Positions 7,819 through 50,147 are shown, numbered from the stretch's first letter. The stretch is 64,000 bases of DNA from Coriobacteriia bacterium (GCA_036504755.1 DASXUP010000013.1:8976-72975); one strand, 5' to 3'. Notes: generated from the letters alone by a model not told the origin. Program-made: numbers and translations.

Positions 7819-7968
7819 ATGTTGTGGACGCTGTTCGTGATCCTGCTGGTGCTGTGGCTGCTGGGAGTGATCTCGGGAACCACGCTCGGCGGCTTCGTCC
7901 ACCTGCTGCTCGTGCTGGCGATCGTGGTGCTCGTCATCGAGCTCCTCACCGGCCGACGCGTCGTCTAG
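7819..7968 (+). CDS. Small lmo0937-family membrane protein (49 aa)
   Basis: ATG 7819 follows GAGAGGGGGG. MLWTLFVILLVLWLLGVISGTTLGGFVHLLLVLAIVVLVIELLTGRRVV matches the lmo0937-type small membrane protein pattern as I recall it. Confidence 0.7.
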   Translation: MLWTLFVILLVLWLLGVISGTTLGGFVHLLLVLAIVVLVIELLTGRRVV

Positions 7969-8675
7969 GCGCCGCCGTCGAGGCGGAAGCCGACTCCGGG
8001 TTCCGTGAGGACATAGCGCGGGATGTCGCCCGGCGCTTCGATCTTGTGCCGCAGATGAGAGACGTGCACGCGCAGCGTCTGTGAGTCGCCCGCGTATTCC
8101 GGTCCCCACACGGTCTCGAGCAGCATCCGCGACGTCACCACCCGGTCGGCATTGCGGGCGAGCAGCGCGAGGATGTCGAACTCGATCCGCGTCAGGCGCA
8201 CTTGCTCCCCCCGCACGGTCACCTCCCGCCTGCCGAAGTCGATGCACAGCTCGCGGGTGCGGAACTCTCCGGCCGAGGTGTCCGCGCCCGCCGTCCGCCT
8301 CAGCAGAGCCCGGATGCGGGCTAGGAGCTCGCCCGTCGAGAACGGCTTCGTCAGGTAGTCGTCCGCGCCGAGGTCCAGCGCGGCGATCTTGTCCTCGTCG
8401 CCGCTGCGGACCGACAGCACGAGGATCGGCCCGCGGTACCACTCGCGCAGCCGGCGGCACGCCTCCAGCCCGCTCATCCCCGGCAGCGACAGGTCGAGGA
8501 TGATCAGGTCGGGCGTCCGCGCGGCGGTGAGCTCGAGCGCCTCCTCGCCCGAAGCCGCAAGCTCTACCTCGTAGTGGCGCACCTGCAGCACCGAGCGGAG
8601 GGCGCGGCGTATCTGCTCCTCGTCGTCGACGATCAGAACGAGTGCCGAGCGTTCGGGCGAGCCCACCGTCATCAC
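7965..8675 (-). CDS. OmpR-family response regulator, KdpE-like
   Basis: Receiver motifs LIVDDE, DLIILDLSLPGMSG and ADDYLTKPF. Winged-helix motifs RIEFDILALLARN, LRVHVSHLRHKIE and GVGFRL. The start (GTG 8675 or ATG 8672) overlaps the kinase stop codon. Confidence 0.9.
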   Translation of the reverse strand: MMTVGSPERSALVLIVDDEEQIRRALRSVLQVRHYEVELAASGEEALELTAARTPDLIILDLSLPGMSGLEACRRLREWYRGPILVLSVRSGDEDKIAALDLGADDYLTKPFSTGELLARIRALLRRTAGADTSAGEFRTRELCIDFGRREVTVRGEQVRLTRIEFDILALLARNADRVVTSRMLLETVWGPEYAGDSQTLRVHVSHLRHKIEAPGDIPRYVLTEPGVGFRLDGGA

Positions 8676-10240
8676 CCGCCTTCTTCGGCGCAGCCGCGAT
8701 CGGAGGGCAGCGCCACTACGAAACGCGCGCCGTGCGGCTCCGCGTCCTCGACGTACAGGCGCCCGCCGTGGCTGCGCACGATCTCGCGTGCGATCGGAAG
8801 ACCTAGGCCCGTGCCGCCCGGAGCTTGGCCGGACGCTGCCCCGCGAAAGAACTTCTCGAAGATGCGGGACCTCTCGGTGCCCCCCACTCCCGGCCCGCGG
8901 TCCTCCACGGCGATGAGGACCTCGCCGGCGCGGACCGAGGACGTGACGACCACCGTCTCGCCCGGCGGCGAGTAGGCCAGGGCGTTCTCGACGAGGTTGA
9001 AGAGCGCCCGAGCGAGCTGCGAGAAGTCCGCACAGATAGTCGGCGCCCCCTCCGACAGCGAGAAGTGGACGCGGCCGCGCTGCGCGGCGGGCAGGCGGGA
9101 GACCACCGTCCCGAGGATGTCGCCGACGTCGTACAGCTCGCGATGCGGCCGCCAGGCGTCCGACTCGAGGCGCGAGAGGTCGAGCAGGTCGCCGATGGAC
9201 GCGTTCAGCCGCTGGAGGTCCTCGGCCACCTCGGTCAGCTCCTCCCCGAGACGGCCCGGCGCGACGACCGCCTCATCGATCAGGCCCGTCACTCGCGCGG
9301 TGGCCGCCGCGAGCGGAGTCTTGAGCTCGTGCGACACGGACGACACCAGCGTGCTCTTCAATTTGTCCGCCTCGCGGAGGGCGGCGGCGTGAGAGGCCTC
9401 CTCCTCTAGCCTCTGGCGCTCGAACGATGCCGCGACCAGGTTGGCGACGGCGACGAGCAGCGCCGGGTCGGCGGCGTCGGAGATCTTGTCGGAGGCGGGC
9501 AGGACGGCGTGCAGGACGCCCTCGCGGCTGTCGGCGGTCTGCAGGGGGAAGTACGCGCCTTCGGACGTCACGCCCGGCAGCGCCTCGGTCGCGCTCACCG
9601 AAGCCGTGCCGTCCTCGGTACTTGAGGGGACGCCTACCGGTCTGCCGTTGCGCAGCACCCAACGCACGAGCGCTGCCTCGCCCGGCGACGGTTTCTGCCG
9701 GCCCGCGGTCGCCAGGCATCGGGCGGCGGGCGCGCCGGCGGGCGCGGCGTAGAGCGCCGCGCGTTCCGCGCCGAGGACGGCGGTCACCTGGCGGACGACG
9801 AAGGCCGCCACCTCGGCCGGAGAGCTCGCGGTGGCGATGCGGAAGGAGAGGCGGTTCAGGAACTCGAGCTCCATCTGCCTCCGCGTGGCCGCGCGCTGGC
9901 GGCGCCTCAGCTGGCCGGTCTGCTGCCCGGCGACGAGCGCGACGACGACGAACACGACGAGTCCGATCCATTCAGCCGCCGACCGGACGGTGAGGCGGTA
10001 GTAGGGCGGCATGAAGAGGAAGTCCATCGCGAAGAAGGCAAGAACGGACGCGGCGGCCGAGGGTCCGACGCCGAAGACGCGCGCCAGCCCGATGATGACC
10101 GGCACGAACAGCAGCATGAGGGTAGGCGGCTGGAGTATCGGCCGCAGCGGCAGCAGCAGGAGCGCGGCGGCCAACACCGCCGCGGTGGCGGTCGGATAGC
10201 CGCCGGCCGCGTATGGGAAGCCGTCAAGACGCATTCTCAT
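8672..10240 (-). CDS. Sensor histidine kinase of the KdpD C-terminal type (DUF4118 membrane domain, GAF-like, HisKA, HATPase), lacking the N-terminal KdpD/Usp module
   Basis: Four N-terminal hydrophobic helices begin at residue ~15 (AVLAAALLLLPL, LMLLFVPVIIGLARVF, VLAFFAMDFLFMPP, IGLVVFVVVALVAG). H-box SHELKTPL. N/G boxes LFNLVENALAYS, DRGPGV and GTGLGLPIAREIV. Confidence 0.9.
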   Translation of the reverse strand: MRMRLDGFPYAAGGYPTATAAVLAAALLLLPLRPILQPPTLMLLFVPVIIGLARVFGVGPSAAASVLAFFAMDFLFMPPYYRLTVRSAAEWIGLVVFVVVALVAGQQTGQLRRRQRAATRRQMELEFLNRLSFRIATASSPAEVAAFVVRQVTAVLGAERAALYAAPAGAPAARCLATAGRQKPSPGEAALVRWVLRNGRPVGVPSSTEDGTASVSATEALPGVTSEGAYFPLQTADSREGVLHAVLPASDKISDAADPALLVAVANLVAASFERQRLEEEASHAAALREADKLKSTLVSSVSHELKTPLAAATARVTGLIDEAVVAPGRLGEELTEVAEDLQRLNASIGDLLDLSRLESDAWRPHRELYDVGDILGTVVSRLPAAQRGRVHFSLSEGAPTICADFSQLARALFNLVENALAYSPPGETVVVTSSVRAGEVLIAVEDRGPGVGGTERSRIFEKFFRGAASGQAPGGTGLGLPIAREIVRSHGGRLYVEDAEPHGARFVVALPSDRGCAEEGG

Positions 10241-10280
10241 GAGGCGCAGCGTAGCACTCGCCGCGCCACAGCGGGCAGCC

Positions 10281-10946
10281 TTACAGGTCGACGCCGAAGC
10301 AGCGGCGCAGCTCGCGCTCCTCGCCCACCTCGGACAGGATCAGGACCTCGTCTCCCACGCCGAGCACCTGGTCCGGATGCGGCACCACGATCTCGCCTTT
10401 GGAGACGATCGCCATGATGTGCGTCTTGCTCGGCATGTGCAGGTCGCCGAGGCGCTTCCCGACAGCCTGTGCATCGGCCGACAGCTTGATGTCGTCGATC
10501 ACCATGTTCTCGGTGGACAGCCCCATGAGCGTTATCACGTCGCCGAGGCTGACCTCTTTCTCGATGAGGTTGTAGATGACCGAGGCGGTCGAGACGCCGA
10601 CGTCCACGCCCCAGGCCTTCGTGAACATCCACTCGTTCTTCGGGTGGTTCGTGCGCGCGAACACCTTGGGCACGCGGTGCGTACGCTTCGACAGGAACGA
10701 CACCACGAGGTTGTCCTCGTCGTCGCCCGTCAGCGCCGCGACCAGGTCTACCTCGGCGGCCCCGGCCTTGTCGAGCACGGCGGGCTCGCATCCGTCACCC
10801 TGGATGATGTCCAGGTGCGGGAGGCGCTGCCTGACGAACTCGACGCGCTCCGGGCGGATCTCCACGATCTTGACCTGGTGCTTCTGCTGAAGCTTCTCCG
10901 CCAGGTAGAGGCCGGCCTTGCCGGCGCCGACGATAAGCACGTTCAT
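10281..10946 (-). CDS. TrkA/RCK-family protein (TrkA-N + TrkA-C), cassette 1, second RCK gene
   Basis: MNVLIVGAGKAGLYLA Rossmann motif, TGDDEDNLVV, and a C-terminal RCK_C-like segment (ADAQAVGKRLGDLHMPSKTHIMAIVSKGEIVVPHPDQVLGVGDEVLIL). The AGGTGG ribosome-binding site overlaps the previous stop codon. Confidence 0.9.
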   Translation of the reverse strand: MNVLIVGAGKAGLYLAEKLQQKHQVKIVEIRPERVEFVRQRLPHLDIIQGDGCEPAVLDKAGAAEVDLVAALTGDDEDNLVVSFLSKRTHRVPKVFARTNHPKNEWMFTKAWGVDVGVSTASVIYNLIEKEVSLGDVITLMGLSTENMVIDDIKLSADAQAVGKRLGDLHMPSKTHIMAIVSKGEIVVPHPDQVLGVGDEVLILSEVGEERELRRCFGVDL

Positions 10947-10956
10947 CGCGGGCCAC

Positions 10957-11628
10957 CTACTCCTTCAGCCCGAGCAGCCGCTCGAGCTTCTCGGTGCTCT
11001 CGTTCAGCACGTTGAGGAACAGCACGTCGTCCTTCTGGAACGTCACCCCGGACGCGGGGAGCATCGCCTCGCCCTCGCGGACGATCGACGCGACCCGGAT
11101 CTCACCCGGGACGTCGAGATCGAGCACGGATCGTCCTTCGAGCCCGGCCGGCAGCTGGACCTCGTACATCTTCACCTCGCCGTTCCCGAACTGGTAGTCG
11201 CTGTGCATGTCGGGGTGCGTGATGAGGTCGAGCAGCCGCGCGCTCGTCCAGGTGACCGACGCGATGGTCGATATGCCGAGGCCGCGGTATATCTCGGCGC
11301 GCCGCGGGTCGTAGATGCGCGCGATGACGCGGGGGACGCGGTAGTACTCCTTGGCGTTGCGCGCCGCGACGATGTTGCTGTTGTCGCCCGAGGTGACCGC
11401 GGCGAAGCAGTCCGCGTCGCGCACGCCCGCCGCCTCCATGACCTCGCGGTCGAACACTTGCCCGACGAACTTCCCGCCGAGGATGCCGTCACCTTCGTCC
11501 TCGTCGAACGCGTGCGGATCCTGGTCGATCACGGACACGGAGTGCCCCTCGTACTCGAGCATGTGCGCGAGGATGCGACCCACACGCCCGTACCCTCCGA
11601 TCAGGACGTGCATATGATGCATCGCCAT
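10957..11628 (-). CDS. TrkA/RCK-family protein (CeoB-like, TrkA-N + TrkA-C), cassette 1, first RCK gene
   Basis: HVLIGGYGRVGRILA, AVTSGDNSNIVAAR, ARIYDPRRAEIYRGLGI, and RCK_C-like LEGRSVLDLDVPGEIRVASIVREGEAMLPASGVTFQKDDVLFL. It starts 7 nt after the ATPase stop. Confidence 0.9.
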   Translation of the reverse strand: MAMHHMHVLIGGYGRVGRILAHMLEYEGHSVSVIDQDPHAFDEDEGDGILGGKFVGQVFDREVMEAAGVRDADCFAAVTSGDNSNIVAARNAKEYYRVPRVIARIYDPRRAEIYRGLGISTIASVTWTSARLLDLITHPDMHSDYQFGNGEVKMYEVQLPAGLEGRSVLDLDVPGEIRVASIVREGEAMLPASGVTFQKDDVLFLNVLNESTEKLERLLGLKE

Positions 11629-11635
11629 CGCCGGG

Positions 11636-14494
11636 TCACCCCACCTTCACGGTCGAAACGCTCGTCGTCCTTCGCAGTACGAACTTGCGGATCTCGTCGG
11701 CTATCAGCAGCAGCGGCCAGAACGCCGCCAGCACGAGCCACTCGTTGAGCGTGAGCGGCGCGGTGCTGAAGATCCGCTGCAGGGCCGGGATGTACATCAG
11801 CGCCGCGACGCCCAGGATCTCGCCCGCGATACCCCACAGTCGAAGCTTATTCGAAAAGAAGCCGACCTTGAGGATAGACTGCCGATGCGTCCGCATGGCG
11901 AACCCGTTCCCGACCTGTGCCATGACGATACCCGTCAAGGTCATGGTGGTGGCGGCGGCGTAGACGCCGGTGGCCCCGATGGCGCCGCCGGGCATGTTCC
12001 CGAAGTGCGCCATCGCGCTCCACTGCCCGAAGTGCCAGCCCGCTTCCATGTAGCGGTGGAAGAACCCGTACAGCCCGACCGCCGCCGCCATAGGGCCGAG
12101 GAACACATACGCCTTCAGGAGCATGCCGGTCGTGAGGATCGGCTCCTTCGGGCTCTTCGGCGGCCGCGCCATGACGCCCGGCTCGGGCTGCTCGAGGCCT
12201 AGGGCGAGGGCGGGGACCTGGTCGGTGAGCAGGTCGATGGTCAGGATCTGGAGCAGCGTGAGCGGCAGCGGGATCCGGAGGAACACCAGCGCCAGGAACG
12301 GGAACATCTCGGCCACGTTGGAGGTCTGGAAGTACGTCAGGAAGCGGCGGATGTTGTCGAAGATCGCCCGGCCCTCCTCGACCGCGTGGACGATCGAGGC
12401 GAAGTTGTCGTCCGTGAGGATCATGTCGGCCGCCTCGCGCGCGACGTCCGTGCCGGCCTTGCCCATCGCGATGCCGATGTCGGCGGCCTTCAGCGCCGGG
12501 GCGTCGTTCACGCCGTCGCCCGTCATCGCGACGACCTCGCCCATCGACTGGAGCTTCTGGGCGATGCGCATCTTGTGCTCCGGTATGACGCGCGCGAACA
12601 CGACCTCGCCCCTGAGCGCCTCCTCGAGATCCCCATCGTCTATCGTATCGAGGTCCTTGCCGGTGATGATGCGCGCGAGCGGGTGGGTGATGATCCCGAT
12701 CTTGCGCGCGATCGCCTCGGCCGTGAGCCCGTAGTCGCCCGTGATCATCACAACGTGGATGCCGGCAAGATGGCACTCCTCGACCGCCGCGGCCACTTCC
12801 GGCCGAGGCGGGTCCTGCATCGCTTCGAGGCCGAGCAGCGTGAGCTTCTGCTCCATCGCCGACATGTCCGCCGGGTCGTCCGTGGCGGCTACCTCGCGGG
12901 TGCAGACGGCGATGACGCGCAGCGCTTCGCGGGCGAGGCGGTCGTTGGCCGCGAGTGCGTCCTCGCGGTCCCGGTCGGTTATCGGGCGGACGCCCTCGGC
13001 CGTGCGGACGTGCGTGCACAGCTCGATCGTCTCCTTCGGCGCCCCCTTGGTGTACGCGCGAAGGCCGCTGCCCGTGTCGCACACGATCGTCATACGCTTG
13101 CGCGCGGAGTCGAAGGGGTGCTCGTAGCGCCGCTCGCAGCGCTGGTGCAGATCCTCGACGTCGAAGCCGCCCTTCGCGGCCGCGACCAGCATGGCGGCCT
13201 CGGTCGGGTCGCCGACGATCCCCCAGCGGTCCGAGTCGCCCTCCGGCGGCTTCATCCGGGAGTTGTTGCACAGCGCGCCGCCTATGAGGCACTCGTCCAG
13301 CAGCTCCCGGGCATCGCCCGTGACGGCCGCCCCGTCCGCTTCGAACGCGCCGTCGGGCGCGTAGCCGACGCCGCTGACCTCGACACGCAGCCCGGGCAGC
13401 CATACCTCGCGCACCGTCATCTGGTTCGCGGTCAGTGTCCCGGTCTTGTCCGTGCAGATGTACGTGGTGGAGCCGAGCGTCTCCACGCTCGACAGCTTCT
13501 TCACCAGAACGTGCCGCTTCGCCATCCGTTGGGCGGCCACCGACAGCGCCATGGTAAGAGTGGGGAGCAGGCCCTCGGGGACGTTGGCGACGATGATGCC
13601 GATCGCGAACACGACCGCTTCCAGAAGGCTCATGCCGACGAAGACGCGCCCGATCACGCCGAAGAACACGCCCAGCACGATGGCGATGAGCGAGATGATG
13701 CGAGAGAGGCGCGCCACGTTCTTCTGCAGCGGCGACAGGCGCTCGGCGACGCTCTGGGTGAGCCCGGCGATCTTGCCGAACTCCGTCTTCATGCCGGTGG
13801 CGTACACCACGCCCCGGCCGGCCCCCAGCACCGCGGTGCTGCCCATGAACACGAAGCTCTCGACGTCGGTGATCGACGGCGCCGTGCCGCACAAGCTGTC
13901 CGCCCGGCGCACCACCGGGTCGACCTCGCCTGTGAGTGCTGAGTTGTCGACACGCAGGTCCGCCGAGTAGACGAGCCGCGCGTCGGCGGGGACGAGGTCG
14001 CCCTCCTCGAGGTAGATGACGTCGCCTGGCACGAGGTAGCGCGCCTCGATGTCCTGCACCTGGCCGTCGCGCACCACTCTAGCCATCGGCGGCAGGAGGT
14101 TGCGCAGCGCCTCGATCGCCTTCTCGGCGCGGTACTCCTGCACGAACGCGAAGACGGCGTTGATGAGGATGACGATGATGATCGCCACGCCGAGGGCGGC
14201 CTGGTCCGAGAAGAACGCCAGCACCGTGGCCGCCCACAGCAGCAGCGCGAACGTGTTGACGAGGTGCGCGCCGAAGCGCTTCCACATCGGCACCGGCTTC
14301 TTCGCCGAAAGCACGTTCTCGCCGAACAGCGCGGCTCGCGCTGCGGCCTCCTCGGCCGTCAGGCCCTTCCTGGAGGTGTACAGCACGCCGTAGACGTCTT
14401 CGGCGGGTACGCCGCACAGGTCGAGCGGCTCGAAGTGCAGCAGTCCTTCGCGCTCGATCGCGGGATCCGTTGCCGGCATCATAGGGCGGGCCAC
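11636..14494 (-). CDS. P2-type cation-transporting ATPase (Na,K/H,K-ATPase-alpha-like ion-site residues), cassette 1
   Basis: LTGEVDP (TGE), ICTDKTGTLT, TKGAPKE, MQDPPRPEV, VMITGDYG and VAMTGDGVNDAPALK. TM4 IVANVPEGLLPT, TM5 FQTSNVAEM, TM6 LTIDLLTDQVPALALG. The start is GTG 14494 or ATG 14482/14479. Confidence 0.95.
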   Translation of the reverse strand: MARPMMPATDPAIEREGLLHFEPLDLCGVPAEDVYGVLYTSRKGLTAEEAAARAALFGENVLSAKKPVPMWKRFGAHLVNTFALLLWAATVLAFFSDQAALGVAIIIVILINAVFAFVQEYRAEKAIEALRNLLPPMARVVRDGQVQDIEARYLVPGDVIYLEEGDLVPADARLVYSADLRVDNSALTGEVDPVVRRADSLCGTAPSITDVESFVFMGSTAVLGAGRGVVYATGMKTEFGKIAGLTQSVAERLSPLQKNVARLSRIISLIAIVLGVFFGVIGRVFVGMSLLEAVVFAIGIIVANVPEGLLPTLTMALSVAAQRMAKRHVLVKKLSSVETLGSTTYICTDKTGTLTANQMTVREVWLPGLRVEVSGVGYAPDGAFEADGAAVTGDARELLDECLIGGALCNNSRMKPPEGDSDRWGIVGDPTEAAMLVAAAKGGFDVEDLHQRCERRYEHPFDSARKRMTIVCDTGSGLRAYTKGAPKETIELCTHVRTAEGVRPITDRDREDALAANDRLAREALRVIAVCTREVAATDDPADMSAMEQKLTLLGLEAMQDPPRPEVAAAVEECHLAGIHVVMITGDYGLTAEAIARKIGIITHPLARIITGKDLDTIDDGDLEEALRGEVVFARVIPEHKMRIAQKLQSMGEVVAMTGDGVNDAPALKAADIGIAMGKAGTDVAREAADMILTDDNFASIVHAVEEGRAIFDNIRRFLTYFQTSNVAEMFPFLALVFLRIPLPLTLLQILTIDLLTDQVPALALGLEQPEPGVMARPPKSPKEPILTTGMLLKAYVFLGPMAAAVGLYGFFHRYMEAGWHFGQWSAMAHFGNMPGGAIGATGVYAAATTMTLTGIVMAQVGNGFAMRTHRQSILKVGFFSNKLRLWGIAGEILGVAALMYIPALQRIFSTAPLTLNEWLVLAAFWPLLLIADEIRKFVLRRTTSVSTVKVG

Positions 14495-14689
14495 CCGATG
14501 ACGCCGGTGGACCGCCGCCCGAGCGAGTGGGTCTCCATGCTCATCTTCGCCGACGACACCGGCGCCTCCAGTCGTAACGCCGCCGAGGCGGCCTCAAGGC
14601 ACGACAGCGGGAAGTATGCCCCTTGAGGTGTTGGAAGCGCGTGAAGAGGCGGTCGCCGGTCGTGAAGAATCCGTTAAGAACCCGGATCT

Positions 14690-15484
14690 CTACCAAAGGC
14701 GGTAGTAGCCGCCGCGCTCGCTCACCTGCGCCGGGTATCGGAAGAGCGCGCCGAGCCGTTCGGCGGTGAGCGCCCGGGACTTCGGCAAGTCGGCGAAGAT
14801 CCTGCCCTCGGCAAGCATCACCACGCGCTCGATCTCCGGGATGATGTCGGCGATGTCGTGCGTCACGAGCACGATCCCCGTCCCCGCTCGCGCCAGGTCG
14901 CGCAGCAGTTCCCGCAGGTCGAAGCGGCCGCGGGGATCCAGCCCGTCGAACGGCTCGTCCAGGATCAGCGTCTCCGGCCGGTGGGCGAGCGCGCGCGCGA
15001 TGAGTGCCCGCCGGGCCTGCCCCGTCGACAAGGTGTCCACCCGCCGTTCCGCCAGCCCCGAGATGCCGAGGAAGCTGAGCACGTCGAGCGTGCGCTCGCC
15101 CATCTCGGCGGTCACGCGCTGGTGCGGGTACGTCCCGATCGAGCCGAAGAAGCCGCCGAGCACGAGCTGCCGCACCGTGACCGGACGGGCGCAGGCGGCT
15201 GCGAGCGCATCGGACACGACGCCGAGGTGGCGCCGTACCTCGAACAGGTCCCAGCGCTCCTGCCCCAGCACGCGCACGCTGCCCACGCCGTCCGAGCGGA
15301 TGCGCGCGTCGCCGGCTATCGTCCGGACGAGCGTCGACTTCCCCGAGCCGTTCGGTCCGATGATGGCGACGTGCTCGCCACGCTCGAACGCCAGCGTGAC
15401 GCGGTCGAGCACGACGTTGGCGCCGAGCACGACCGAGGCGTCGCGGAACTCGACGAGTTGGCGGTCGCCGGCTGAAGACGTCAC
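14690..15484 (-). CDS. Orphan ABC-type ATPase (ModF/YlmA-like nucleotide-binding domain, no permease nearby)
   Basis: GTG 15484 overlaps the TGA of the upstream TrkA-N gene (GTGA). Walker A GPNGSGKST, signature LSTGQARR, Walker B LILDEP, H-loop VTHD. It is the C-terminal 264 codons of track ORF 14690..15793. Confidence 0.8.
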   Translation of the reverse strand: MTSSAGDRQLVEFRDASVVLGANVVLDRVTLAFERGEHVAIIGPNGSGKSTLVRTIAGDARIRSDGVGSVRVLGQERWDLFEVRRHLGVVSDALAAACARPVTVRQLVLGGFFGSIGTYPHQRVTAEMGERTLDVLSFLGISGLAERRVDTLSTGQARRALIARALAHRPETLILDEPFDGLDPRGRFDLRELLRDLARAGTGIVLVTHDIADIIPEIERVVMLAEGRIFADLPKSRALTAERLGALFRYPAQVSERGGYYRLW

Positions 15485-15897
15485 TGCTTCGTGACGACGT
15501 GCTTCTCTAGAAGGTTCGCGATCATGGACGTGTTCGACACGGGTATGTCCACGCCGAACTCGTCGGTGAACAGCCACTCGTTCTTCGGGTTGTTTATGCG
15601 CGCGATGGTGAGCGGCACCTTGTACTCGTACTTCCCGAGCAGGCACACCACGAGGTTGTCTTCGTCGTCGCCGGTGGCCGCGACGATCGCGTCCGCCTTC
15701 GTGACGTTCGCGTCCTCCAGGATGTACGGCTCGTCGCCGTCGCCGCAGATCAGCCGCACGTTGTCCTGGAGCTCGCCTTCCAGACGCGTGCACTGCTCCG
15801 GCCTGAACTCCACCAGCGTGACCTCGTGACCGGCCTCTCCGAGCATCTGAGCGAGGAACGAACCGACCTTGCCCCCGCCGACTATGACTACGACCAT
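15481..15897 (-). CDS. TrkA-N-only RCK protein (138 aa, no RCK_C domain), cassette 2, second RCK gene
   Basis: MVVVIVGGGKVGSFLA, TGDDEDNLVV and ARINNPKNEWLF. It is clearly paralogous to the N-terminal half of 10281..10946 but ends after about 138 aa. The TAGGAGG ribosome-binding site overlaps the previous stop. Confidence 0.85.
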   Translation of the reverse strand: MVVVIVGGGKVGSFLAQMLGEAGHEVTLVEFRPEQCTRLEGELQDNVRLICGDGDEPYILEDANVTKADAIVAATGDDEDNLVVCLLGKYEYKVPLTIARINNPKNEWLFTDEFGVDIPVSNTSMIANLLEKHVVTKQ

Positions 15898-15908
15898 CTC
15901 TTCGCCTC

Positions 15909-16556
15909 CTACAGGCCGATCATGCGCTTGAACTTCGGCATAGCGGTGGTGAGGACGGCGAGCTCCAGCACGTCTCCCTCGCGGAAGGTCGCGCCGGTCG
16001 CCGGGATGAACGACTGTCCCGCCCTGATGATGGCCACCACGAGCACCTCGTTCGGCATCGAGATGTCTTCGACGCGCCTGCCGATGAGCTGCTGCGTCAC
16101 GGACAGCTTCACCAGCTGCACCTCGCCGTCACCGAGGGTGGTGTCTCGCACGAGCGCCTGGTGCATGACGATCGACATGATCTCGTTCACGGCCCACGAG
16201 ACCGACGAGATCGTCGGGATGCCGAGGCGCCGGTAGATGTCGGCGCGGCGGGGGTCGAAGATGCGTGCGACCACCTTGGGGATGCGGTAGATGTCCCGCG
16301 CGATCGTGGAGGAGACGACGTTGCTGTTGTCGCCGCTGGTGACCGCGACGAACGCGTCGGCCATGTCCGCCCCGGCCTTCGTCAGAACGTCCCGGTCGAA
16401 GACGAGACCCTTGACCGTGATCCCCTTGAACGCCTTCCCGAGCCGCTTGAACGCCGCGGGGTCCTTGTCGATGACCGCGACGTCATGCCCCTCGGCCGAG
16501 AACTTGGTCGCGAGCAGGGCGCCTACACGACCGCATCCCGCGATTATGACCTTCAC
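15909..16556 (-). CDS. TrkA/RCK-family protein (CeoB-like), cassette 2, first RCK gene
   Basis: GTG start with a GAGGGAGG ribosome-binding site that overlaps the ATPase stop. KVIIAGCGRVGALLA, AVTSGDNSNVV, ARIFDPRRADIYRRLGI, and RCK_C-like LIGRRVEDISMPNEVLVVAIIRAGQSFIPATGATFREGDVLEL. Confidence 0.9.
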   Translation of the reverse strand: MKVIIAGCGRVGALLATKFSAEGHDVAVIDKDPAAFKRLGKAFKGITVKGLVFDRDVLTKAGADMADAFVAVTSGDNSNVVSSTIARDIYRIPKVVARIFDPRRADIYRRLGIPTISSVSWAVNEIMSIVMHQALVRDTTLGDGEVQLVKLSVTQQLIGRRVEDISMPNEVLVVAIIRAGQSFIPATGATFREGDVLELAVLTTAMPKFKRMIGL

Positions 16557-16567
16557 TTTCGCCTCCC

Positions 16568-19441
16568 TCAGCTCGCCGCCGCGACATCGTCGTCGTCGGT
16601 CTTGTCCTCATGGTAGACTTCCCCACCCTCGGCCGTATCCGCCACCAACGGGTGACGGCGCCGGTAGAAGAACTTGCGGATCTCGTCGGCGACCAGGAGC
16701 GTGGGTATGAGCGCGACGAGCACGACCCAGTCGACGGGTTGCAGCGGACCGTGCTCGAAGATGCGCTGGAACGGCTGCGCGTAGATCAGGATGTTGATCG
16801 CGACGAGCTCGATCAGGATGCCCCAGATCAGGAATCGGTTGCTGAAGAAGCCGACCTTGAAGATCGACTCGCGGTTCGTCCGCTGCGCGAAGCCGTTGCC
16901 GATCTGGGTCGTGACGACCGCGGCGTGCGTCATCGTCGTCGCTTTGGCATACAGCAGCGCTCCCGCGGTCCCGGCACCCATCGCCACCATGCCGGCCACG
17001 CCCATCGAGGGACGCCAGCCGTGGGACCAGTACATCCAGTAGAAAGCGACCATCGCTGCCGCGGCTTGGATCGGGCCGAGGAACAGGAACACGCGCCAGA
17101 GTACCGACCAGTTCAGCAGGTTTTCCGATCGCGACCGCGGCGGCCGCCGCATGATGCCGGGCTCGGGCGCTTCGGTGCCGAGGGCGAGTGCCGGGATCAT
17201 GTCCGTGCCGAGGTCGATGGCGAGGATCTGCATGACCGTGAGCGGGAGTGGTATGCGGAACATGACGAACAGCAGGAACGGCACGAGCTCGGGCACGTTG
17301 CTGGTGAAGATGTAGGTGACGAACCGGCGGATGTTGTCGTAGACCGCGCGACCCTCTTCGATCGCGTTGACGATGCTCGCGAAGTTGTCGTCCGTGAGGA
17401 TCATGTCGGCCGCTTCCTTGGCGACGTCCGTGCCCGCGATCCCCATCGCGACACCGATGTCGGCTACCTTCAGCGCCGGCGCGTCGTTCACGCCGTCGCC
17501 GGTCATGGCTACGATGTGCCCCATGTCCTTCAGCGCCTGCGCGATCTGCATCTTGTGCTCGGGCGCCACGCGCGCGAACAGCACGTCGTCCTTCGCGAGG
17601 TGCTCCTCGAGGTCCTGCTGGGTCATCCGGTTGAGTTCGGCGCCCGTCACGATCGTCGCGCTGCTTCCGCGGACGATCCCGATCCGGCGCGCGATCGATT
17701 CCGCCGTCAGGCCGTAGTCGCCGGTGATCATGATGATCTTGATGCCGGCCGTCCGGCACTCCTCGACGGCCGTCGCCACCTCGTCGCGCGGCGGGTCCTG
17801 CATCGCCATCAAGCCGACGAACACGAGATCGCGCTCGGTCGCATCGGGCGAGTAGTCGCTCTCGTGCTCCGGGATCTCGCGATACGCCATCGCGAGCACT
17901 CGCAGGCCGTTGCGCGCGAACTCGTCGTTCTGCCCGACGATCGTCTCGCGGTCCTCGGCCGTCATGTCGCGCGAGCCGTCCACCGTCGCGATCCGCGTCG
18001 ACAGGTCGAGGACCTCCTTCGGAGCGCCCTTCACGTAGCCGATGCGGCCGAACTTGTGCAGGTGGATCGTCGTCATGCGCTTGCGCACGGAGTCGAACGG
18101 CAGCTCGAATATCCGCCGGTAGGCCTTGATCTCCTTCGGGTAGTCGAAGCCGGCCTTCTCCGCGGCCACGAGTAGCGCGGCCTCCGTCGGATCGCCGAGG
18201 ATCGTCCAGGTGTCCTTCTCGGCCGAGGGCGGGATCAGCCGGGCGTTGTTGGCGAGGGCTGCCGCGCGCACGAGTATCCGGAGCGCCTGCTGCTGGTGCT
18301 CGTTCAGACTCTTGCCGTCGTGGACGAACTCGCCGTTGGGCTCGTAGCCGCTGCCGAGGACCTGGATGTGCTCGCCGTTCACGAAGATGTCCCGGACCGT
18401 CATCTCGTTCTTCGTGAGCGTCCCGGTCTTGTCCGTGCAGATCACGGTCGTGGAGCCCAGCGTCTCCACCGAGGACAGCTTCTTGATGAGCGCGTGCCTC
18501 CCCGCCATCCGCTGCACGCCCATCGCGAGTGCCAGGCTGACGGTGGGCAAGAGGCCCTCCGGCACGAGCGCGACGATTATGCCGACGGCGAAGACGAAGC
18601 CCTCGATGAGCGTCAGCCCGGCGACGAAGTAGCCGAGCACGAAGAACAGAACGCCGAGTCCGGTCGCGAGGATCGCGACGATCTGGACGACCTTCTCCAT
18701 CTGCTTCTGCAACGGCGAGAGTTCCTGCTTCACGCTCTGCGTCAGCTGCGCGATCTTGCCGAACTGCGTGTGCATCCCGGTCGCGTAGACGGCCGCCTTG
18801 CCGCCGCCGTACGCGACCGACGTGCCGGCGAAGACGAGGTTCGGCATCTCGACGACGGTGAGTCGTTCGTCCTTGTGAGGTGACGCCGTCTTGCGGACGG
18901 GCTCGGACTCGCCCGTCAAGGTGGCGTTGTTCGTGCGGAGCTCGAACTCCTCGATCAGCCGCGCGTCGGCCGAGATGTTGTCGCCCTCCTCGAGCACCAA
19001 TATGTCGCCCGGCACGATCTCGCCCGCCAGGATCTCCTTCACCTCGCCGTCCCGGATGACCTTGGCACGAGCGGGGATCATCGCCTTGAGCGCCTCGGTC
19101 GCCTTCTCGGCCTTGAACTCCTGCCAGAACGAGAAGATGGCGTTGATGAAGATCACGGCGAAGATGGCGTAGCCGAGCTGGGGCATACCCCCGACGAAGG
19201 ACAGGACGCCGCCGACCCAGAGCATGATCGCGAACAGGTGGTAGAAGTTCTCGAGGAACTTCAGCCACAGCGGCCGCCCGCGGACTTCCTTGATCTCGTT
19301 CCGGCCGTACGTCTCGAGACGCTCGAGCGCATCGGACTCGGAGAGGCCGTCCTCGCCGGAGTGGAGCGTCTCGAGCACCGAGGTCCGCGTCATCTCGTGG
19401 CAGGAGACCTCGGGGTCGCACACAAGAGGTTCGGTCGGCAT
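16568..19441 (-). CDS. P2-type cation-transporting ATPase (Na,K/H,K-ATPase-alpha-like ion-site residues), cassette 2
   Basis: LTGESEP, ICTDKTGTLT, VKGAPKE, MQDPPRDEV, IMITGDYG and VAMTGDGVNDAPALKVADIGVAMGIAGTDVAKEAADMILTDDNFASIV. TM4 IVALVPEGLLPT, TM5 IFTSNVPEL, TM6 LAIDLGTDMIPALALG. Confidence 0.95.
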   Translation of the reverse strand: MPTEPLVCDPEVSCHEMTRTSVLETLHSGEDGLSESDALERLETYGRNEIKEVRGRPLWLKFLENFYHLFAIMLWVGGVLSFVGGMPQLGYAIFAVIFINAIFSFWQEFKAEKATEALKAMIPARAKVIRDGEVKEILAGEIVPGDILVLEEGDNISADARLIEEFELRTNNATLTGESEPVRKTASPHKDERLTVVEMPNLVFAGTSVAYGGGKAAVYATGMHTQFGKIAQLTQSVKQELSPLQKQMEKVVQIVAILATGLGVLFFVLGYFVAGLTLIEGFVFAVGIIVALVPEGLLPTVSLALAMGVQRMAGRHALIKKLSSVETLGSTTVICTDKTGTLTKNEMTVRDIFVNGEHIQVLGSGYEPNGEFVHDGKSLNEHQQQALRILVRAAALANNARLIPPSAEKDTWTILGDPTEAALLVAAEKAGFDYPKEIKAYRRIFELPFDSVRKRMTTIHLHKFGRIGYVKGAPKEVLDLSTRIATVDGSRDMTAEDRETIVGQNDEFARNGLRVLAMAYREIPEHESDYSPDATERDLVFVGLMAMQDPPRDEVATAVEECRTAGIKIIMITGDYGLTAESIARRIGIVRGSSATIVTGAELNRMTQQDLEEHLAKDDVLFARVAPEHKMQIAQALKDMGHIVAMTGDGVNDAPALKVADIGVAMGIAGTDVAKEAADMILTDDNFASIVNAIEEGRAVYDNIRRFVTYIFTSNVPELVPFLLFVMFRIPLPLTVMQILAIDLGTDMIPALALGTEAPEPGIMRRPPRSRSENLLNWSVLWRVFLFLGPIQAAAAMVAFYWMYWSHGWRPSMGVAGMVAMGAGTAGALLYAKATTMTHAAVVTTQIGNGFAQRTNRESIFKVGFFSNRFLIWGILIELVAINILIYAQPFQRIFEHGPLQPVDWVVLVALIPTLLVADEIRKFFYRRRHPLVADTAEGGEVYHEDKTDDDDVAAAS

Positions 19442-31679: not shown

Positions 31680-32588
31680 TTACACTTGCTCGATACGCTG
31701 GAGCACCCAGTCGAGCGCCGGGTCGTTCATCTGCGTCCCGCAGTACGCGCACTTCACGTAGTTGCCGTCGGTGACTGGTGCGCCGCAGTTCGGGCACTTC
31801 TTGATCGTCGCCTCGGCCTTCGTCCGCGCGCCCGCCTTGCGGACGAGCGTCCAGTACTCCTGGAACGTCTTCGGCGTCTTGCCGTCGCCGAGAACCCCGG
31901 GGTTGACCAGCTCGCCCGTGCGTTCATCGACCGTGTAGTCGATCACCGTCGCCGTGACGAGGACGCGGACGTAGTCGTACCCGCCCTCGGCAGTGACCGA
32001 GACGGGGTCTATGCGGTCGACGTGCATGCCGTCGAGCTTGTTGACCTGGCCGCTGCGGACGTACTCCTGCACGCCGTTCTGCAGTACGTCGAACTGCTGG
32101 TCGGCGAGGAACCTGCGCGCCGGCTCCATGTCGCGAGCCTGCCACGCATGCTGGATGGCCATGAACATCTCGTTGACCCGCCCGTAGAACGCCTGCTCGC
32201 CGAAGTCCGGGTCCGCGGCCTTCAGGGCATCGAACGAGGCCTGGTCCGGCGGCGTCTCGGTCATGATCGAGCCGATGGCGCCGCCCTCGCCGCCGGAGCT
32301 CCCGCCACCGTTGCGGCTCTGGACGTACATCACTATGCCGACGATGACGATGATGAGGATGATCGTCCCGCAGCCGCCACCGCCGCCTCCGATCGGGATC
32401 GGGATCGGCAGGCCGCCGGAGAACCCGCCGGAGCTGCGGCTGCCTCCGCTGAACCCGCCCGAGCGGCCGGGGCTGCCGATGTGGCCGCCGCCCGCACGGG
32501 CGAGCGCGACGCTGGGCAGCAGCAGGGCGAGCGCGAGCGCCAGCACAAGGGCGGCAGCGAGGGCCGCGCGCTGCGAACGTGTGCGCAT
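31680..32588 (-). CDS. Membrane-anchored Tim44-like domain protein with a Gly-rich N-terminal segment and a C-terminal zinc ribbon
   Basis: Signal-like MRTRSQRAALAAALVLALALALLLPSVALA. GGFSGG repeats. TM segment TIILIIVIVGIVMYV. Tim44-like core FYGRVNEMFMAIQHAWQARDMEPARRFL...YWTLVRK. Zinc ribbon CPNCGAP...CAYCG, ending DPALDWVLQRI. Confidence 0.8.
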   Translation of the reverse strand: MRTRSQRAALAAALVLALALALLLPSVALARAGGGHIGSPGRSGGFSGGSRSSGGFSGGLPIPIPIGGGGGGCGTIILIIVIVGIVMYVQSRNGGGSSGGEGGAIGSIMTETPPDQASFDALKAADPDFGEQAFYGRVNEMFMAIQHAWQARDMEPARRFLADQQFDVLQNGVQEYVRSGQVNKLDGMHVDRIDPVSVTAEGGYDYVRVLVTATVIDYTVDERTGELVNPGVLGDGKTPKTFQEYWTLVRKAGARTKAEATIKKCPNCGAPVTDGNYVKCAYCGTQMNDPALDWVLQRIEQV

Positions 32589-32597
32589 CCCGGTCAC

Positions 32598-33677
32598 CTA
32601 CTCCTGCTTCGTGCCGCACGAGGGGCAGAACTTGGCGTCCGCCGCCAGCTCGGCATCGCAGTTCGCACAGCGTTTCGGGCCCACGGCCGCCCCGCAAGCG
32701 GGGCAGAACTTCCCGCCCGCGGGAACCGCTGCGCCGCAACCCGGGCAGGTGACGGCGGTCGCGGAGGCCTGTTGAGCCTGCTGCTGCACCTGGCCCGACT
32801 GCACCCCGCCGGCGATGGTCTGGCCGAGCCCCGCGCCGACGAACAGACCCGCCATGGACGCGCCGTCGCCGCCCTGCGCCATGCCCTGAGCGGCACCGAA
32901 CATCGCCTCCGTCTGGCCGGCCGCCATGTACCGCGGGTCTCCGGCGAGGCGCATCTTCGCCATGCGGTCCTTGAGGTCGAGCAGACGCTGCCGGTCGGCG
33001 TCATCCATGTTGACGAGGAAGTCCTCGATCTTGGTGATCTGCAAGCCCCAGTCGGCGAGGTACGGTCCCGCCGCCTCCACGATGGCCTTCTCGAACTCGA
33101 GGTTGTACGTGCCGTCGGTGACGTCCAGCAGCGACCACTTCTCGGACTTCATCTTGCCGAAGACCGTGGCGCGCAGGATCTTGGTGAGCTGGTCGCGTAT
33201 CGCGTCCGCGATGAACTCGTTGCTATAGATCGTCTGCGTGCCGATGAGGCCGAGGATGAGCTTCGCCGGGTCGACCACCTTGAAGACGTACTCGCCGAAG
33301 ACGCCGCAGCGCAACACCTCGCCCGTGCCGGGGTCCTCGACCTCGCCCATCGAGCCGCCGAATTTGTTGTTGGCGAACTCACGGTTCGAGACGAAGTACA
33401 GTTCGGCCTTGAGCGCGTTGCCTCCAGTGGCGCCGTCGATCAGCCCTCCGATGAAGGGGATGTTCGCGCCGTCGAGCCGATGCTGGCCGCCCTGCAGGTA
33501 TCCGGCGACGCTGCCTTCTTTGATGAAGAGCGCCCATTCGTCGGGCTGGACCGTGGCGACCGAGAAGAGCCGGATGTTCTGCTCCGGCCATTTGTAGAGC
33601 ACGAGGTCCTTGCTGCTGTCCGGGCGCGCGATGAACTGCTCCTGCAGTCCGCCCTTGAAGCCGTCGAGAAGTCCCAT
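32598..33677 (-). CDS. SPFH (stomatin/prohibitin/flotillin)-like protein with a C-terminal double zinc ribbon (COG4260 / B. subtilis YdjI-like)
   Basis: MGLLDGFKGGLQEQFIARPDSSKDLVLYKWP...VQPDEWALFIKEG...ELYFVSNREF...RCGVFGEYVFKVVDP. C-terminus CPGCGAAVPAGGKFCPACGA...CANCDAELAADAKFCPSCG. Confidence 0.85.
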   Translation of the reverse strand: MGLLDGFKGGLQEQFIARPDSSKDLVLYKWPEQNIRLFSVATVQPDEWALFIKEGSVAGYLQGGQHRLDGANIPFIGGLIDGATGGNALKAELYFVSNREFANNKFGGSMGEVEDPGTGEVLRCGVFGEYVFKVVDPAKLILGLIGTQTIYSNEFIADAIRDQLTKILRATVFGKMKSEKWSLLDVTDGTYNLEFEKAIVEAAGPYLADWGLQITKIEDFLVNMDDADRQRLLDLKDRMAKMRLAGDPRYMAAGQTEAMFGAAQGMAQGGDGASMAGLFVGAGLGQTIAGGVQSGQVQQQAQQASATAVTCPGCGAAVPAGGKFCPACGAAVGPKRCANCDAELAADAKFCPSCGTKQE

Positions 33678-33776
33678 TCGTCCGCCTTTCGATGCCGACG
33701 GGGGAGGGGAAGAGGGAGCCCCCCGTTCCTGTTCCTCACATCTTGGGGAGTCGCGGGGCGCGAATCAACCGCGGGG

Positions 33777-34403
33777 TCAGTCCAAGTCGATCCGGGAGAC
33801 CACCCAGTCGAGCGCGGGATCGGCCAGACGCGCTCCGCAGTACGAGCACCGCGTGGGATCGTCGCCGTCGGTGGGAGCACCGCAGTTCGGGCACTTGTAG
33901 GCGGAGAGCCCGGCCTTCGTCTGCGCGCCCGCGCGACGGATGAGCGTCCAGTACTCCTGCAGCTTCTGCGATCCGCGGGCCTGACCGGGGTAGGCCGCGG
34001 TGATCATGACGCGCACCGTGTCCATGCCTTCCTCGTGCCTCGCCGTCATCGCGCGCGCATGCTCGGGCTCGGGCACCGCCGACGGGATCGACGCCTCTTG
34101 CGACTTCATCCGGTCGGCCAGCTCGCGGTAGTAGCGCTCGTCGATGAATCGCCGCGCGGGCGCGAGGTCGTTCTTCGCGAGCGCGGCGTGGTAGGCCTGG
34201 AACATCTCGGCGACACGGGCGTAGAACGTGTCGAGGTCGAACGCCGGGTCGGCGTGCCGGATCGCCCCGAAGCCGATGTGCTCGGGCGCCGAGGAGCCGT
34301 GGAGCCGCACGGGCGGAGCCCAAGTGTCGGCGTCGTCGGTCTCCTGCGGCACGCCGGCACTCACGCGGGCCAGAGCCGCGAAGAGATCGTTCCAGAAGCC
34401 CAT
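33777..34403 (-). CDS. Soluble Tim44-like domain protein with a C-terminal zinc ribbon, paralogous to 31680..32588
   Basis: GGGAGGTG ribosome-binding site. FYARVAEMFQAYHAALAKNDLAPARRFI...EYWTLIRR...CPNCGAP...CSYCGARLADPALDWVVSRI. It has the same C-terminal signature as the downstream paralogue. Confidence 0.8.
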   Translation of the reverse strand: MGFWNDLFAALARVSAGVPQETDDADTWAPPVRLHGSSAPEHIGFGAIRHADPAFDLDTFYARVAEMFQAYHAALAKNDLAPARRFIDERYYRELADRMKSQEASIPSAVPEPEHARAMTARHEEGMDTVRVMITAAYPGQARGSQKLQEYWTLIRRAGAQTKAGLSAYKCPNCGAPTDGDDPTRCSYCGARLADPALDWVVSRIDLD

Positions 34404-34437
34404 CCGTCACCTCCCGCTCACAGCGTAGCAGGGGGCG

Positions 34438-35538
34438 CTAGAACCGCGCGACCTCGCGATAAAAGGTGTCGCGCTGCACGGGCGTGAAGCCGGCGTCGCG
34501 GGCGAGGCGGACGAGCTCGTCGCGCGCGAGCATGTAGCGCGTGCCCGCCGCGGCGACGACGTTCTCCTCGATCATCGTCGAGCCGAGGTCGTTCGCTCCG
34601 AAGGCGAGCGCGACCTGGCCGATCTTGCCGCCCTGAGTCACCCAGCTCGCCTGGATGTTCGGTACGTTGTCGAGGTACAGCCGCGACACGGCGAGCGTCC
34701 GCAGGTACTGCCACCCGCTCGCGGCCGCGGGCTGCTCGGTCTCGAGCTCGGTGTTCCCGGGCTGGAAGCTCCACGGGATGAACGCGCGGAAGCCGACGTG
34801 CCCCCCGGCGACCGCCTCGTCCTGCACCTCGCGTACGCGGCGCATGTGCTCGACGCGCTCTTGAAGCGTCTCGACGCCCCCGAACATCATCGTGGCGGTG
34901 GTCGACATGTCGAGCTTGTGCGCCTCGCGCATCACGTCGAGCCACTGCTCGCTGGACGCCTTGTGCGGCGACACGTAGCTGCGCACGCGGTCCACGAGGA
35001 TCTCCGCGCCGCCGCCGGGCAGCGAGTCGAGGCCGGCGTCGCGCAGGCGCCGGAGGACCTCGCGCGTGGAGATGTTGGAGACGCGGGCGATGTGCACGAT
35101 CTCGGGCGGGCCGAAGCCGTGGACGTGGATGGGGAAGCGCGCCTTCAGCTCGCGCAGCATCCCCTCGTACCACTCGATGCCGAGGTCCGGATGCAGCCCG
35201 CCCTGCAGCAGGATCGCCGTCCCGCCCAGCTCGAGCGTCTCGGCCACCTTCGCGTACAGCTCGTCGGGCGGGAGCACGTAGGCGTCCGGGTCCTCGGCCG
35301 AGCGGTAGAAGGCACAGAAGCGGCAGCCGGAGACGCACACGTTCGTGTAGTTCACGTTGCGGTCGACGATGAAGGTGACCTCGCTCTCCGGATGCATCCG
35401 GTCCCGCGTCGCGCCCGCGGCCGCGGCGAGGTCGAGCATCTCGGCGGACTCCAGCAGCGAGAGGGCTTCGGCTTCCGTCAGCCGATGCTCGCCGCTGGCC
35501 GCCGCGAAGGCGAGGCCTGCGAGGCCGGGCGCGCTCAC
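34438..35538 (-). CDS. mqnC: Cyclic dehypoxanthinyl futalosine synthase (radical SAM), MqnC
   Basis: GTG 35538 overlaps the mqnA TGA. NYTNVCVSGCRFCAFY (CxxxCxxC), LLQGGLHPD, FIPWSFQPGNT, QASWVTQG and GANDLGSTMIEENVVAAAG. It is the C-terminal 366 codons of track ORF 34438..35862. Confidence 0.85.
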   Translation of the reverse strand: MSAPGLAGLAFAAASGEHRLTEAEALSLLESAEMLDLAAAAGATRDRMHPESEVTFIVDRNVNYTNVCVSGCRFCAFYRSAEDPDAYVLPPDELYAKVAETLELGGTAILLQGGLHPDLGIEWYEGMLRELKARFPIHVHGFGPPEIVHIARVSNISTREVLRRLRDAGLDSLPGGGAEILVDRVRSYVSPHKASSEQWLDVMREAHKLDMSTTATMMFGGVETLQERVEHMRRVREVQDEAVAGGHVGFRAFIPWSFQPGNTELETEQPAAASGWQYLRTLAVSRLYLDNVPNIQASWVTQGGKIGQVALAFGANDLGSTMIEENVVAAAGTRYMLARDELVRLARDAGFTPVQRDTFYREVARF

Positions 35539-36362: not shown

Positions 36363-36383
36363 GGACCCTCGCTTCCGCGGCTT

Positions 36384-37034: not shown

Positions 37035-37063
37035 GTTCGGACCCCCTTCTCTTGTGGCCCTGG

Positions 37064-38179: not shown

Positions 38180-38322
38180 TGTCTCGCCCCTTCTCGTCCG
38201 GGGCGCCGCCGCCCCCGCCGGGAATGATATACCTTCGAGCGGACATGGCCGGCTGGAATACGTTGCCATGGCCTCGGTTATATACCTTCGTGATCGCCCG
38301 AACAGAATCCGGGAGGGACAAG

Positions 38323-39321: not shown

Positions 39322-39332
39322 GGAGAGACTTC

Positions 39333-46672: not shown

Positions 46673-46699
46673 CGGCAAGACACGCCAAGAGACTGCCGA

Positions 46700-46732
46700 G
46701 AGGCCCCGCCCGGAAAGGGCGGGGCCTCTTTC
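46700..46732 (+). terminator. Rho-independent terminator after ftsH
   Basis: GAGGCCCCGCCC-GGAAA-GGGCGGGGCCTC is a perfect 12-bp stem followed by TTTC, 28 nt after the ftsH stop. Confidence 0.7.
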
Positions 46733-50142: not shown

Positions 50143-50147
50143 GACGG

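Follow-up and report, generated by a model that had tools for sequence, protein, structure and literature searches.

A 64-kb stretch of DNA from a 726-kb contig in the metagenome-assembled genome of an uncultured Coriobacteriia bacterium (JGI 3300035523; GCA_036504755.1 DASXUP010000013.1:8976-72975; 69% GC), referred to here as the window and used whole for counting all positions, carries on its minus strand two paralogous cassettes in which a P2-type ATPase gene is followed by the genes of two TrkA-like RCK proteins, RCK-A and RCK-B; a sensor kinase gene and a response regulator gene come after them. Cassette 2 consists of pump 2 (16568..19441, 957 amino acids (aa)), assigned by Pfam, NCBIfam and its motifs, RCK2a (15909..16556, 215 aa), an RCK-A type protein with TrkA_N and TrkA_C domains that was placed by Pfam, NCBIfam and an RCK tree, and RCK2b (15481..15897, 138 aa), an RCK-B type protein with TrkA_N only, for which comparison with the orthologous locus L002 was also used. 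Cassette 1 consists of pump 1 (11636..14494), a paralogue of pump 2 supported by Pfam, NCBIfam, PDB, motif and tree evidence, followed by RCK1a (RCK-A type, 10957..11628, 223 aa) and RCK1b (RCK-B type, 10281..10946, 221 aa), both assigned by Pfam, NCBIfam and PDB alignment. Pump 1 is 952 aa long when read from position 14494, and 948 aa long in the JGI gene call, which begins at 14482. The two pumps are 52% identical to each other, and the RCK proteins of the two cassettes show 46-47% identity between paralogues. Downstream, Pfam and NCBIfam identified a sensor histidine kinase of the DUF4118-GAF-HisKA-HATPase architecture (8672..10240) and an OmpR-family response regulator (7965..8675), the start of which overlaps the kinase stop.

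The intergenic gaps within the cassettes are 11, 11, 7 and 10 nucleotides (nt), and 40 nt separate RCK1b from the kinase gene. These values reproduce the 7-11 nt gaps and the 40-nt spacing given in a preliminary description of this DNA, whose open reading frame (ORF) coordinates and strands were likewise all recovered and whose domains were found by Pfam. That description had also placed each downstream Shine-Dalgarno sequence over the preceding stop codon; the overlap is clear at both cassette 2 junctions, but in cassette 1 the Shine-Dalgarno sequences lie just before or across the stop. A second RCK gene is present in both cassettes as had been claimed, but the description took no account of the N-only form of RCK2b and missed a gene lying between the cassettes. 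The intervening region (14495-15480) is made up of this gene, which encodes an orphan ATP-binding cassette (ABC) transporter ATPase of 264 aa (14690..15484, minus strand) recognized by domain matches, and a leader of approximately 195 nt. The GTG start of the ABC ATPase gene overlaps the RCK2b stop (GTGA), and no permease gene lies nearby. L002, the orthologous locus, has no such gene, which was therefore probably inserted here and lies outside the core of the module.

Genes across the window were called from GC3 bias and searched with Pfam, and tblastn was run with two TrkH proteins and the pump. Neither these domain searches on called genes nor tblastn with TrkH and the pump revealed TrkH, KtrB, KdpA or KdpB in the 64 kb, and KdpC was likewise not found in the window, so that the lack of a TrkH, KtrB or KdpA-like partner noted previously was upheld. 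Since trkA and trkH are commonly unlinked, the lack of TrkH within 64 kb says little by itself.

Ion sites and classification of the pumps

Both pumps contain the P2 catalytic motifs (DKTGT, PEGL in transmembrane helix (TM) 4, MITGD and TGDGVNDAP) together with the N- and C-terminal cation-ATPase domains. Pump 2 carries VPEGLLPT in TM4, TSNVPE in TM5, IDLGTD in TM6, a Q..N pair and a glutamate in TM9, with TGES intact; the motifs of pump 1 include TSNVAE and IDLLTD, and its ion-site residues are the same as those of pump 2. In an alignment of TM5-10 with Na,K-ATPase alpha, TSNVAE corresponds to S775/N776/E779, IDLLTD to D804/D808, Q..N to Q923/D926 and the TM9 glutamate to E954. The equivalents of E327, S775, N776, E779, D804, D808, Q923 and E954 are invariant in 12 family members, whereas D926, which belongs to the third Na+ site, is Asn in the pumps, sites I and II being intact. 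The residues that form the Ca2+ site in Ca2+ pumps (PEGLP, NxGE and N...D) are replaced by PEGLL, SNxxE and DLxTD in TM4, TM5 and TM6. When 86 pumps were compared they divided cleanly into those with the Na,K/H,K signature and those with a Ca2+ signature (PEGLPAV, NxGE, NLVTDG), and every RCK-linked pump among them carried the Na,K/H,K signature.

The TM4, TM5 and TM6 motifs had been reported for both pumps in the preliminary description, which regarded the double aspartate of TM6 as a mark of Na,K/H,K-ATPases, and this association is borne out by the retained ion-site residues and by the PDB matches of the membrane domain. When TM5-10 alone was searched, the best PDB match was Na,K-ATPase alpha at 112 bits, followed by SERCA at 103 and LMCA1 at 77, while over the full length LMCA1/SPCA1 and Na,K-ATPase gave equally strong matches. 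The description's assignment to a P2C-like class fared less well. Both pumps scored 650-657 bits with the PMR1-type NCBIfam model (TIGR01522, cut-off 798), 589-625 bits with the IIC model (TIGR01106, cut-off 946), 564-584 bits with the SERCA-type model (TIGR01116, cut-off 703) and 104-124 bits with the kdpB model (cut-off 528). Because every subfamily hidden Markov model score is below its cut-off, the two proteins are, judged by sequence, unclassified prokaryotic P2 pumps outside formal P2C. Sites I and II are nonetheless predicted to be of the K+-binding P2C type, and since these sites are Na,K/H,K-like and the third-site Asp is replaced by Asn, the pump is most likely one that brings in K+ in exchange for Na+ or H+. 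To judge from Na,K-ATPase mutants, the Asn at the D926 position argues against a 3-Na+ stoichiometry. Pfam searches of the called genes, covering ±10 kb and then the remainder of the window, revealed no member of the beta-subunit family.

The A-domain TGES serine has been lost in the pump 1 lineage: residues 187-191 of pump 1 include TGEV in place of TGES, the L002 orthologue has TGEA and a further relative (L010) SGEA, while pump 2 retains TGES. In KdpB, the serine of this motif is the site of inhibitory phosphorylation. Five residues of pump 1 (417, 433, 437, 517 and 594) are conserved wherever the pump is RCK-linked but not in the Na,K-like pumps without such a link, which have other residues there; P417, A433, V437 and N517 fall in the nucleotide-binding (N) domain, two of them just past the DPTE motif. 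These positions, for which phylogenetic non-independence is uncontrolled, may provide a lead to a docking surface.

Conservation and co-inheritance of the pump and RCK genes

The order pump, RCK-A, RCK-B was found in at least 18 loci besides the window, namely L002, two more distant relatives (L003 and L005) and 15 loci from a species-representative genome sample. That sample comprised 80 P2 pumps of 36-52% identity among the matches listed, and was broad without including close relatives; two RCK genes directly followed the pump in 15 of these 80 loci, again among the matches listed. The carriers were Bacillus marasmi, Geomonas anaerohicana, Anaerocolumna jejuensis, two Collinsella, an Olsenella, a Streptomyces, a Coriobacteriaceae metagenome-assembled genome, members of the Thermoleophilia, Anaerolineaceae, Erysipelotrichaceae, Nitriliruptoraceae and Rokubacteriota, and two Clostridia. 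The unit is thus retained down to approximately 45% pump identity and in at least five phyla (Actinomycetota, Bacillota, Chloroflexota, Desulfobacterota and Rokubacteriota). Both cassettes are present in L002, a 65% relative, where the DUF4118 kinase and regulator genes lie between them, and pump, RCK-A and RCK-B are also retained in L003 (Candidatus Solincola, 54%) and L005 (GCA_020723485, 51%). The genes are closely packed and translationally coupled: in 7 of 18 cassettes the RCK-A start shares 4 nt with the end of the pump gene, and the gap between RCK-A and RCK-B is 27 nt or less in 17 of 18. Conservation of this synteny had been named beforehand as a point on which a link between pump and RCK genes would stand or fall, and the order observed across phyla excludes chance adjacency. 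TrkH was found within 10 kb of none of the 15 linked loci among the matches listed.

The two RCK proteins correspond to successive halves of TrkA. RCK-A covers positions 1-220 and RCK-B positions 229-443 of the NCBIfam TrkA model, and in PDB alignments they match residues 1-212 and 235-436, respectively, of Vibrio TrkA (4J9U), which was solved bound to TrkH. A GxGxxG Rossmann motif is present in nearly all members, and the acidic residue after beta-2, which binds ribose, is invariant. On these alignments the pair is a split TrkA, with RCK-A representing N1-C1 and RCK-B N2-C2; the tandem RCK arrangement of TrkA is found solely in this split form, and RCK2b is without C2. The orthologue of RCK2b in L002 is a 136-aa protein that is also N-only although no ABC gene adjoins it. 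Truncation of RCK2b by the ABC insertion was therefore ruled out, and the N-only form is a feature conserved with a 65% relative. A precedent for the composition of cassette 2 is provided by Thermotoga TM1088A/B (PDB 3L4B), in which an N-only and a full-length RCK protein occur in a mixed ring.

Phylogenetic trees showed that the three genes share their history. In the RCK tree all position 1 proteins fell in one clade (A) and all position 2 proteins in another (B) in every phylum sampled. The RCK-linked pumps made up 19 of the 22 members of one clade of the pump tree. The proteins of cassette 1 and cassette 2 of the window each paired with their own L002 orthologue, indicating that pump, RCK-A and RCK-B were duplicated together. 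The pump and both RCK proteins of gut Actinomycetota (Collinsella, Olsenella and Coriobacteriaceae; L016-L019) grouped with those of Bacillota and not with those of other Actinomycetota. This placement of Collinsella and Olsenella in all three trees implies that the module was passed from one phylum to another in one piece, and indicates that human-gut Coriobacteriia acquired it whole by horizontal transfer.

A TrkH cluster directly adjoins the module in L003 (3342-18799) and L005 (2172-12217). These clusters contain three to five additional RCK domains, a conserved ORF of 51-53 aa before TrkH and a conserved protein of approximately 191-194 aa without a Pfam match after it, and a V-type ATPase operon comes immediately after the cluster in L003. 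Taken together, the genes make up a large cation-homeostasis island. The RCK proteins that flank TrkH in L003 and L005 fell outside clades A and B.

RCK pairs of this kind are not exclusive to pumps. In a metagenome sample of 80 loci with RCK-A-like proteins, obtained by searching with an actinobacterial subset of RCK-A, a pump was directly upstream in 10 and was absent in 43 that had at least 1.5 kb of upstream sequence, while TrkH lay within 6 kb of none of the 80. One large clade took in 34 of the 43 unlinked pairs, and three exceptions were nested among pump-linked lineages. The neighbours of the unlinked pairs were an APC-superfamily permease of approximately 760 aa (26 of 43), a U5-methyltransferase-like gene (22 of 43) and also DUF3710, as in examples drawn from L096-L166 (the permease at L097:1949-4228 and the RCK pair at L117:6001-7346). 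This neighbourhood of APC permease and methyltransferase-like gene looks like that of Mycobacterium tuberculosis ceoB/ceoC. With RCK pairs found beside either a pump or an APC permease, a partner encoded next door is more plausible than a distant TrkH. The M. tuberculosis Trk system has been described as CeoB and CeoC, an adjacent pair of TrkA-like proteins of approximately 220 aa, with no TrkH named (PMC13163235, PMC4553272), and thus resembles the pair studied here, although the neighbour in the CeoB/CeoC-like clade is an APC-type permease and not a P-type ATPase. By analogy, this suggests that the membrane partner of CeoB/CeoC is the adjacent permease, and since no TrkH has been described, the targets of the M. 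tuberculosis "Trk" proteins merit re-examination.

The two-component system and upstream repeats

The kinase encoded after cassette 1 aligns to residues 414-883 of Escherichia coli KdpD at 180 bits (cut-off 1123) and its DUF4118 domain is the four-helix membrane domain of the KdpD type. The N-terminal and Usp domains of KdpD are reported to carry its serine-kinase function (PMC11018627); both domains are missing from the kinase of the window. The best NCBIfam match of the regulator was KdpE (NF007820) at 208 bits against a cut-off of 325, followed by MtrA at 197 and RpaB at 196. A DUF4118-GAF-HisKA kinase and an OmpR-type regulator are therefore present as previously described, but with both scores below cut-off the system can be called only Kdp-like rather than Kdp-type. 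A DUF4118-HisKA-HATPase kinase and a regulator also adjoin the module in L002, L008, L016 and L088; in Bacillus marasmi and Collinsella they are directly upstream of the pump gene, and in Geomonas a HAMP-PAS kinase takes the place of the DUF4118 kinase. A kinase gene is adjacent in only about 5 of the 18 linked loci.

A pattern search and comparison with L002 revealed a triple direct repeat approximately 170 nt 5' of pump 1 (14641..14680, minus strand), of the form TTCTTAAC-GGA-TTCTTCAC-N13-CTCTTCAC. The element occurs at the same place in L002, where it is the sole well-conserved block of an otherwise diverged leader, and the repeat pattern has 1 match in the window compared with 0.12 expected by chance. 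Spaced direct repeats are the usual form of an OmpR-family operator, and the repeats look like a candidate operator for the OmpR-type regulator. Inspection by eye alone showed a weaker sequence of similar appearance 5' of pump 2, on which no claim is based. No Rfam match reached the gathering threshold anywhere in the window, and control by a riboswitch or other RNA element, including a cyclic di-AMP riboswitch, was rejected for this reason. Scans of the block found no sigma-70-like promoter, and terminator-like matches at chance level, both scans being uninformative at 69% GC.

Interpretation and alternative explanations

We lean, with modest conviction, towards reading the locus as encoding a pump that countertransports K+ and has a TrkA-like regulatory ring of its own, under the control of a KdpD-like sensor. 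The region would then represent two paralogous copies of a three-gene transport module together with a two-component regulator. Each pump would move Na+ or H+ out of the cell and K+ in, and RCK-A and RCK-B would assemble into a TrkA-like nucleotide-binding ring that serves as a dedicated regulatory subunit of the pump, coupling its activity to cytoplasmic nucleotide and/or K+ status. In this role the ring would act as a post-translational brake, as KdpD-dependent serine phosphorylation does for KdpFABC. Transcription would be governed by the kinase, in which the DUF4118-GAF portion is like the half of KdpD that senses K+, together with its regulator acting at the repeats 5' of cassette 1. Recruitment of RCK regulators to a P2-type K+ or Na+/K+ pump had been proposed in the preliminary description; conserved synteny, co-divergence and the Na,K-like site speak for it, whereas the physical gating that it implied is something we infer. 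A stronger form of the proposal, in which a ring of half-size RCK proteins is a true subunit of a beta-free Na,K/H,K-like K+ pump controlled by a short KdpD-like sensor, and the RCK family to which the pair belongs, CeoB/CeoC included, regulates an adjacent non-channel transporter (P2 pump or APC permease) and not TrkH, is put forward tentatively, as a possibility to which we give rather less than even weight.

Several observations weigh against a pump gated by its own ring. Over their whole length, the pumps score slightly higher with the PMR1-type P2A model than with the P2C model, and Na,K-signature pumps without RCK genes are many (Nitrospira, archaea and S. ratti), implying that such a pump can work without RCK proteins. 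The large cytoplasmic headpiece of a P-type ATPase leaves no obvious place for a ring to dock, and no pump-RCK fusion protein was seen in this analysis. The module and TrkH cluster of L005 resemble one operon, and with the contiguity in L003 this makes a functional tie to Trk possible. Correlation between the distances of the pump and those of RCK-A and RCK-B was high (Mantel r = 0.75-0.77, a value reached by 0 of 1000 label permutations) but is inflated by shared species history. Even with up to 3 mismatches allowed, the repeat motif matches in the window only upstream of cassette 1.

That the RCK pair serves an SKT channel (TrkH or KtrB) encoded elsewhere, and is merely co-expressed with a Na+-extruding pump while Trk takes up K+, seems to us unlikely, yet it is the main alternative. 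The Enterococcus hirae ntp operon, in which a Na+ V-ATPase is encoded with the KtrB-like NtpJ, would be a model for such co-expression, and both RCK proteins are genuine halves of TrkA, as shown by their alignment to a TrkA solved with TrkH; trkA and trkH are, moreover, commonly unlinked. A TrkH cluster abuts the module in both relatives, with the V-type ATPase operon beyond it in L003; the adjacent TrkH, however, has a full RCK set of its own outside the pump-linked clades A and B, and TrkH is absent within 10 kb of the 15 listed linked loci and within 6 kb of the 80 RCK pairs. The pump and RCK genes duplicate, co-diverge and transfer together and have stop/start overlaps, and the two paralogous pumps have each retained a separate RCK pair, the pairs having diverged to 46-47% identity, which would be unexpected if both pairs served one channel.

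It is very improbable that the pumps are ordinary Ca2+ (or Mn2+) exporters of the LMCA1/PMR1 kind for which the RCK and two-component genes are irrelevant to ion or control. Such a role would agree with the PMR1-type model being the best whole-length NCBIfam match at 650-657 bits, with the strong LMCA1/SPCA1 matches in PDB and with the annotation of relatives in their sources as Ca2+/Mg2+ ATPases, but all the subfamily scores lie below cut-off, the Ca2+-site signature is replaced by the Na,K/H,K signature in every RCK-linked pump, the membrane domain matches Na,K-ATPase at 112 bits versus 77 for LMCA1, and the conserved synteny is not explained by chance adjacency. We hold it about as improbable that the two RCK proteins serve as a soluble sensor of nucleotides or redox state acting on the kinase or on transcription and not on the pump itself. 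RCK domains do regulate non-transport proteins in some systems, an example being the RCK_C domain of the BusR repressor, and a kinase gene lies 40 nt after RCK1b in the window and follows the module in L088 as well; most linked loci, however, are without an adjacent kinase, so that the invariant partner of the RCK proteins is the pump and not the kinase, and Pfam found no DNA-binding domain in RCK-A or RCK-B.

The proposed ring-regulated pump shares features with several known systems. Like the alpha subunits of Na,K/H,K-ATPases, which are its best PDB match in TM5-10, it is a ten-helix P2 pump with identical residues at sites I and II and with E954 kept, but it is prokaryotic, is encoded with two RCK proteins and no nearby beta or FXYD gene, has Asn at D926 and lacks the C-terminal YY tail. 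The placing of a P-type ATPase beside a DUF4118-type kinase and an OmpR-type regulator recalls KdpFABC/KdpDE, and induction together with a post-translational brake is plausibly needed in both; the module, in contrast, is without KdpA, KdpB and KdpC, its pump is of P2 and not P1A type and would bind ions within its own helices, and RCK proteins would stand in for the channel-like subunit. RCK-A and RCK-B align to the halves of TrkA (4J9U/4G65) and keep the Rossmann nucleotide-binding motif, as expected of TrkAH/KtrAB components, although here the TrkA halves come from separate genes, it is a primary pump that is conserved beside them, and there is no TrkH or KtrB in the window and none near most linked loci. 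Control of non-channel transporters by RCK/KTN domains is seen in the antiporters KefC, KhtTU and CpaA; the partners of these and of TM1088A/B are secondary transporters or unknown and include no P-type pump.

The known targets of gating by RCK rings are channels, SKT transporters and CPA2 antiporters, and control of a P-type pump would add a new class of RCK partner. The component families are all known; what appears to be new is the conserved way in which they are combined, together with the mode of regulation that this implies. In the literature covered by full-text searches, no account was met of a P-type ATPase that is encoded with, or works with, TrkA/RCK proteins, and recent RCK-focused papers made no mention of pumps. 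The role of prokaryotic Na,K-ATPase-like (P2C-like) pumps has been presented as an unsolved problem in a review that omits RCK and TrkA (Palmgren 2023, PMC10654040). If the interpretation of a ring-regulated pump is true, no earlier case is known in which an ATP-driven ion pump is controlled by a soluble ligand-gated ring. The operon would also supply a testable hypothesis for the Na,K-like pumps, namely K+ countertransport that is induced and gated by K+ or nucleotide status, which could be examined in cultured carriers such as Bacillus marasmi, Anaerocolumna jejuensis, Geomonas anaerohicana, Collinsella and Streptomyces.

Elsewhere in the window, 19 kb from the pumps, a glycine-betaine-type ABC importer is encoded on the plus strand (38164-41635) by genes for an OpuAC binding protein, a permease and a CBS-domain ATPase, and constitutes a second osmoregulatory system in the window. 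Further gene sets lie at 31680-38341 on the minus strand and 46336-55052 on the plus strand. They include an SPFH/zinc-ribbon protein between two Tim44-like domain proteins, a futalosine-type menaquinone cluster (VitK2_biosynth and two radical-SAM CofH/MqnC-like genes), a GAF-HisKA_3 kinase and a Tad pilus gene set.

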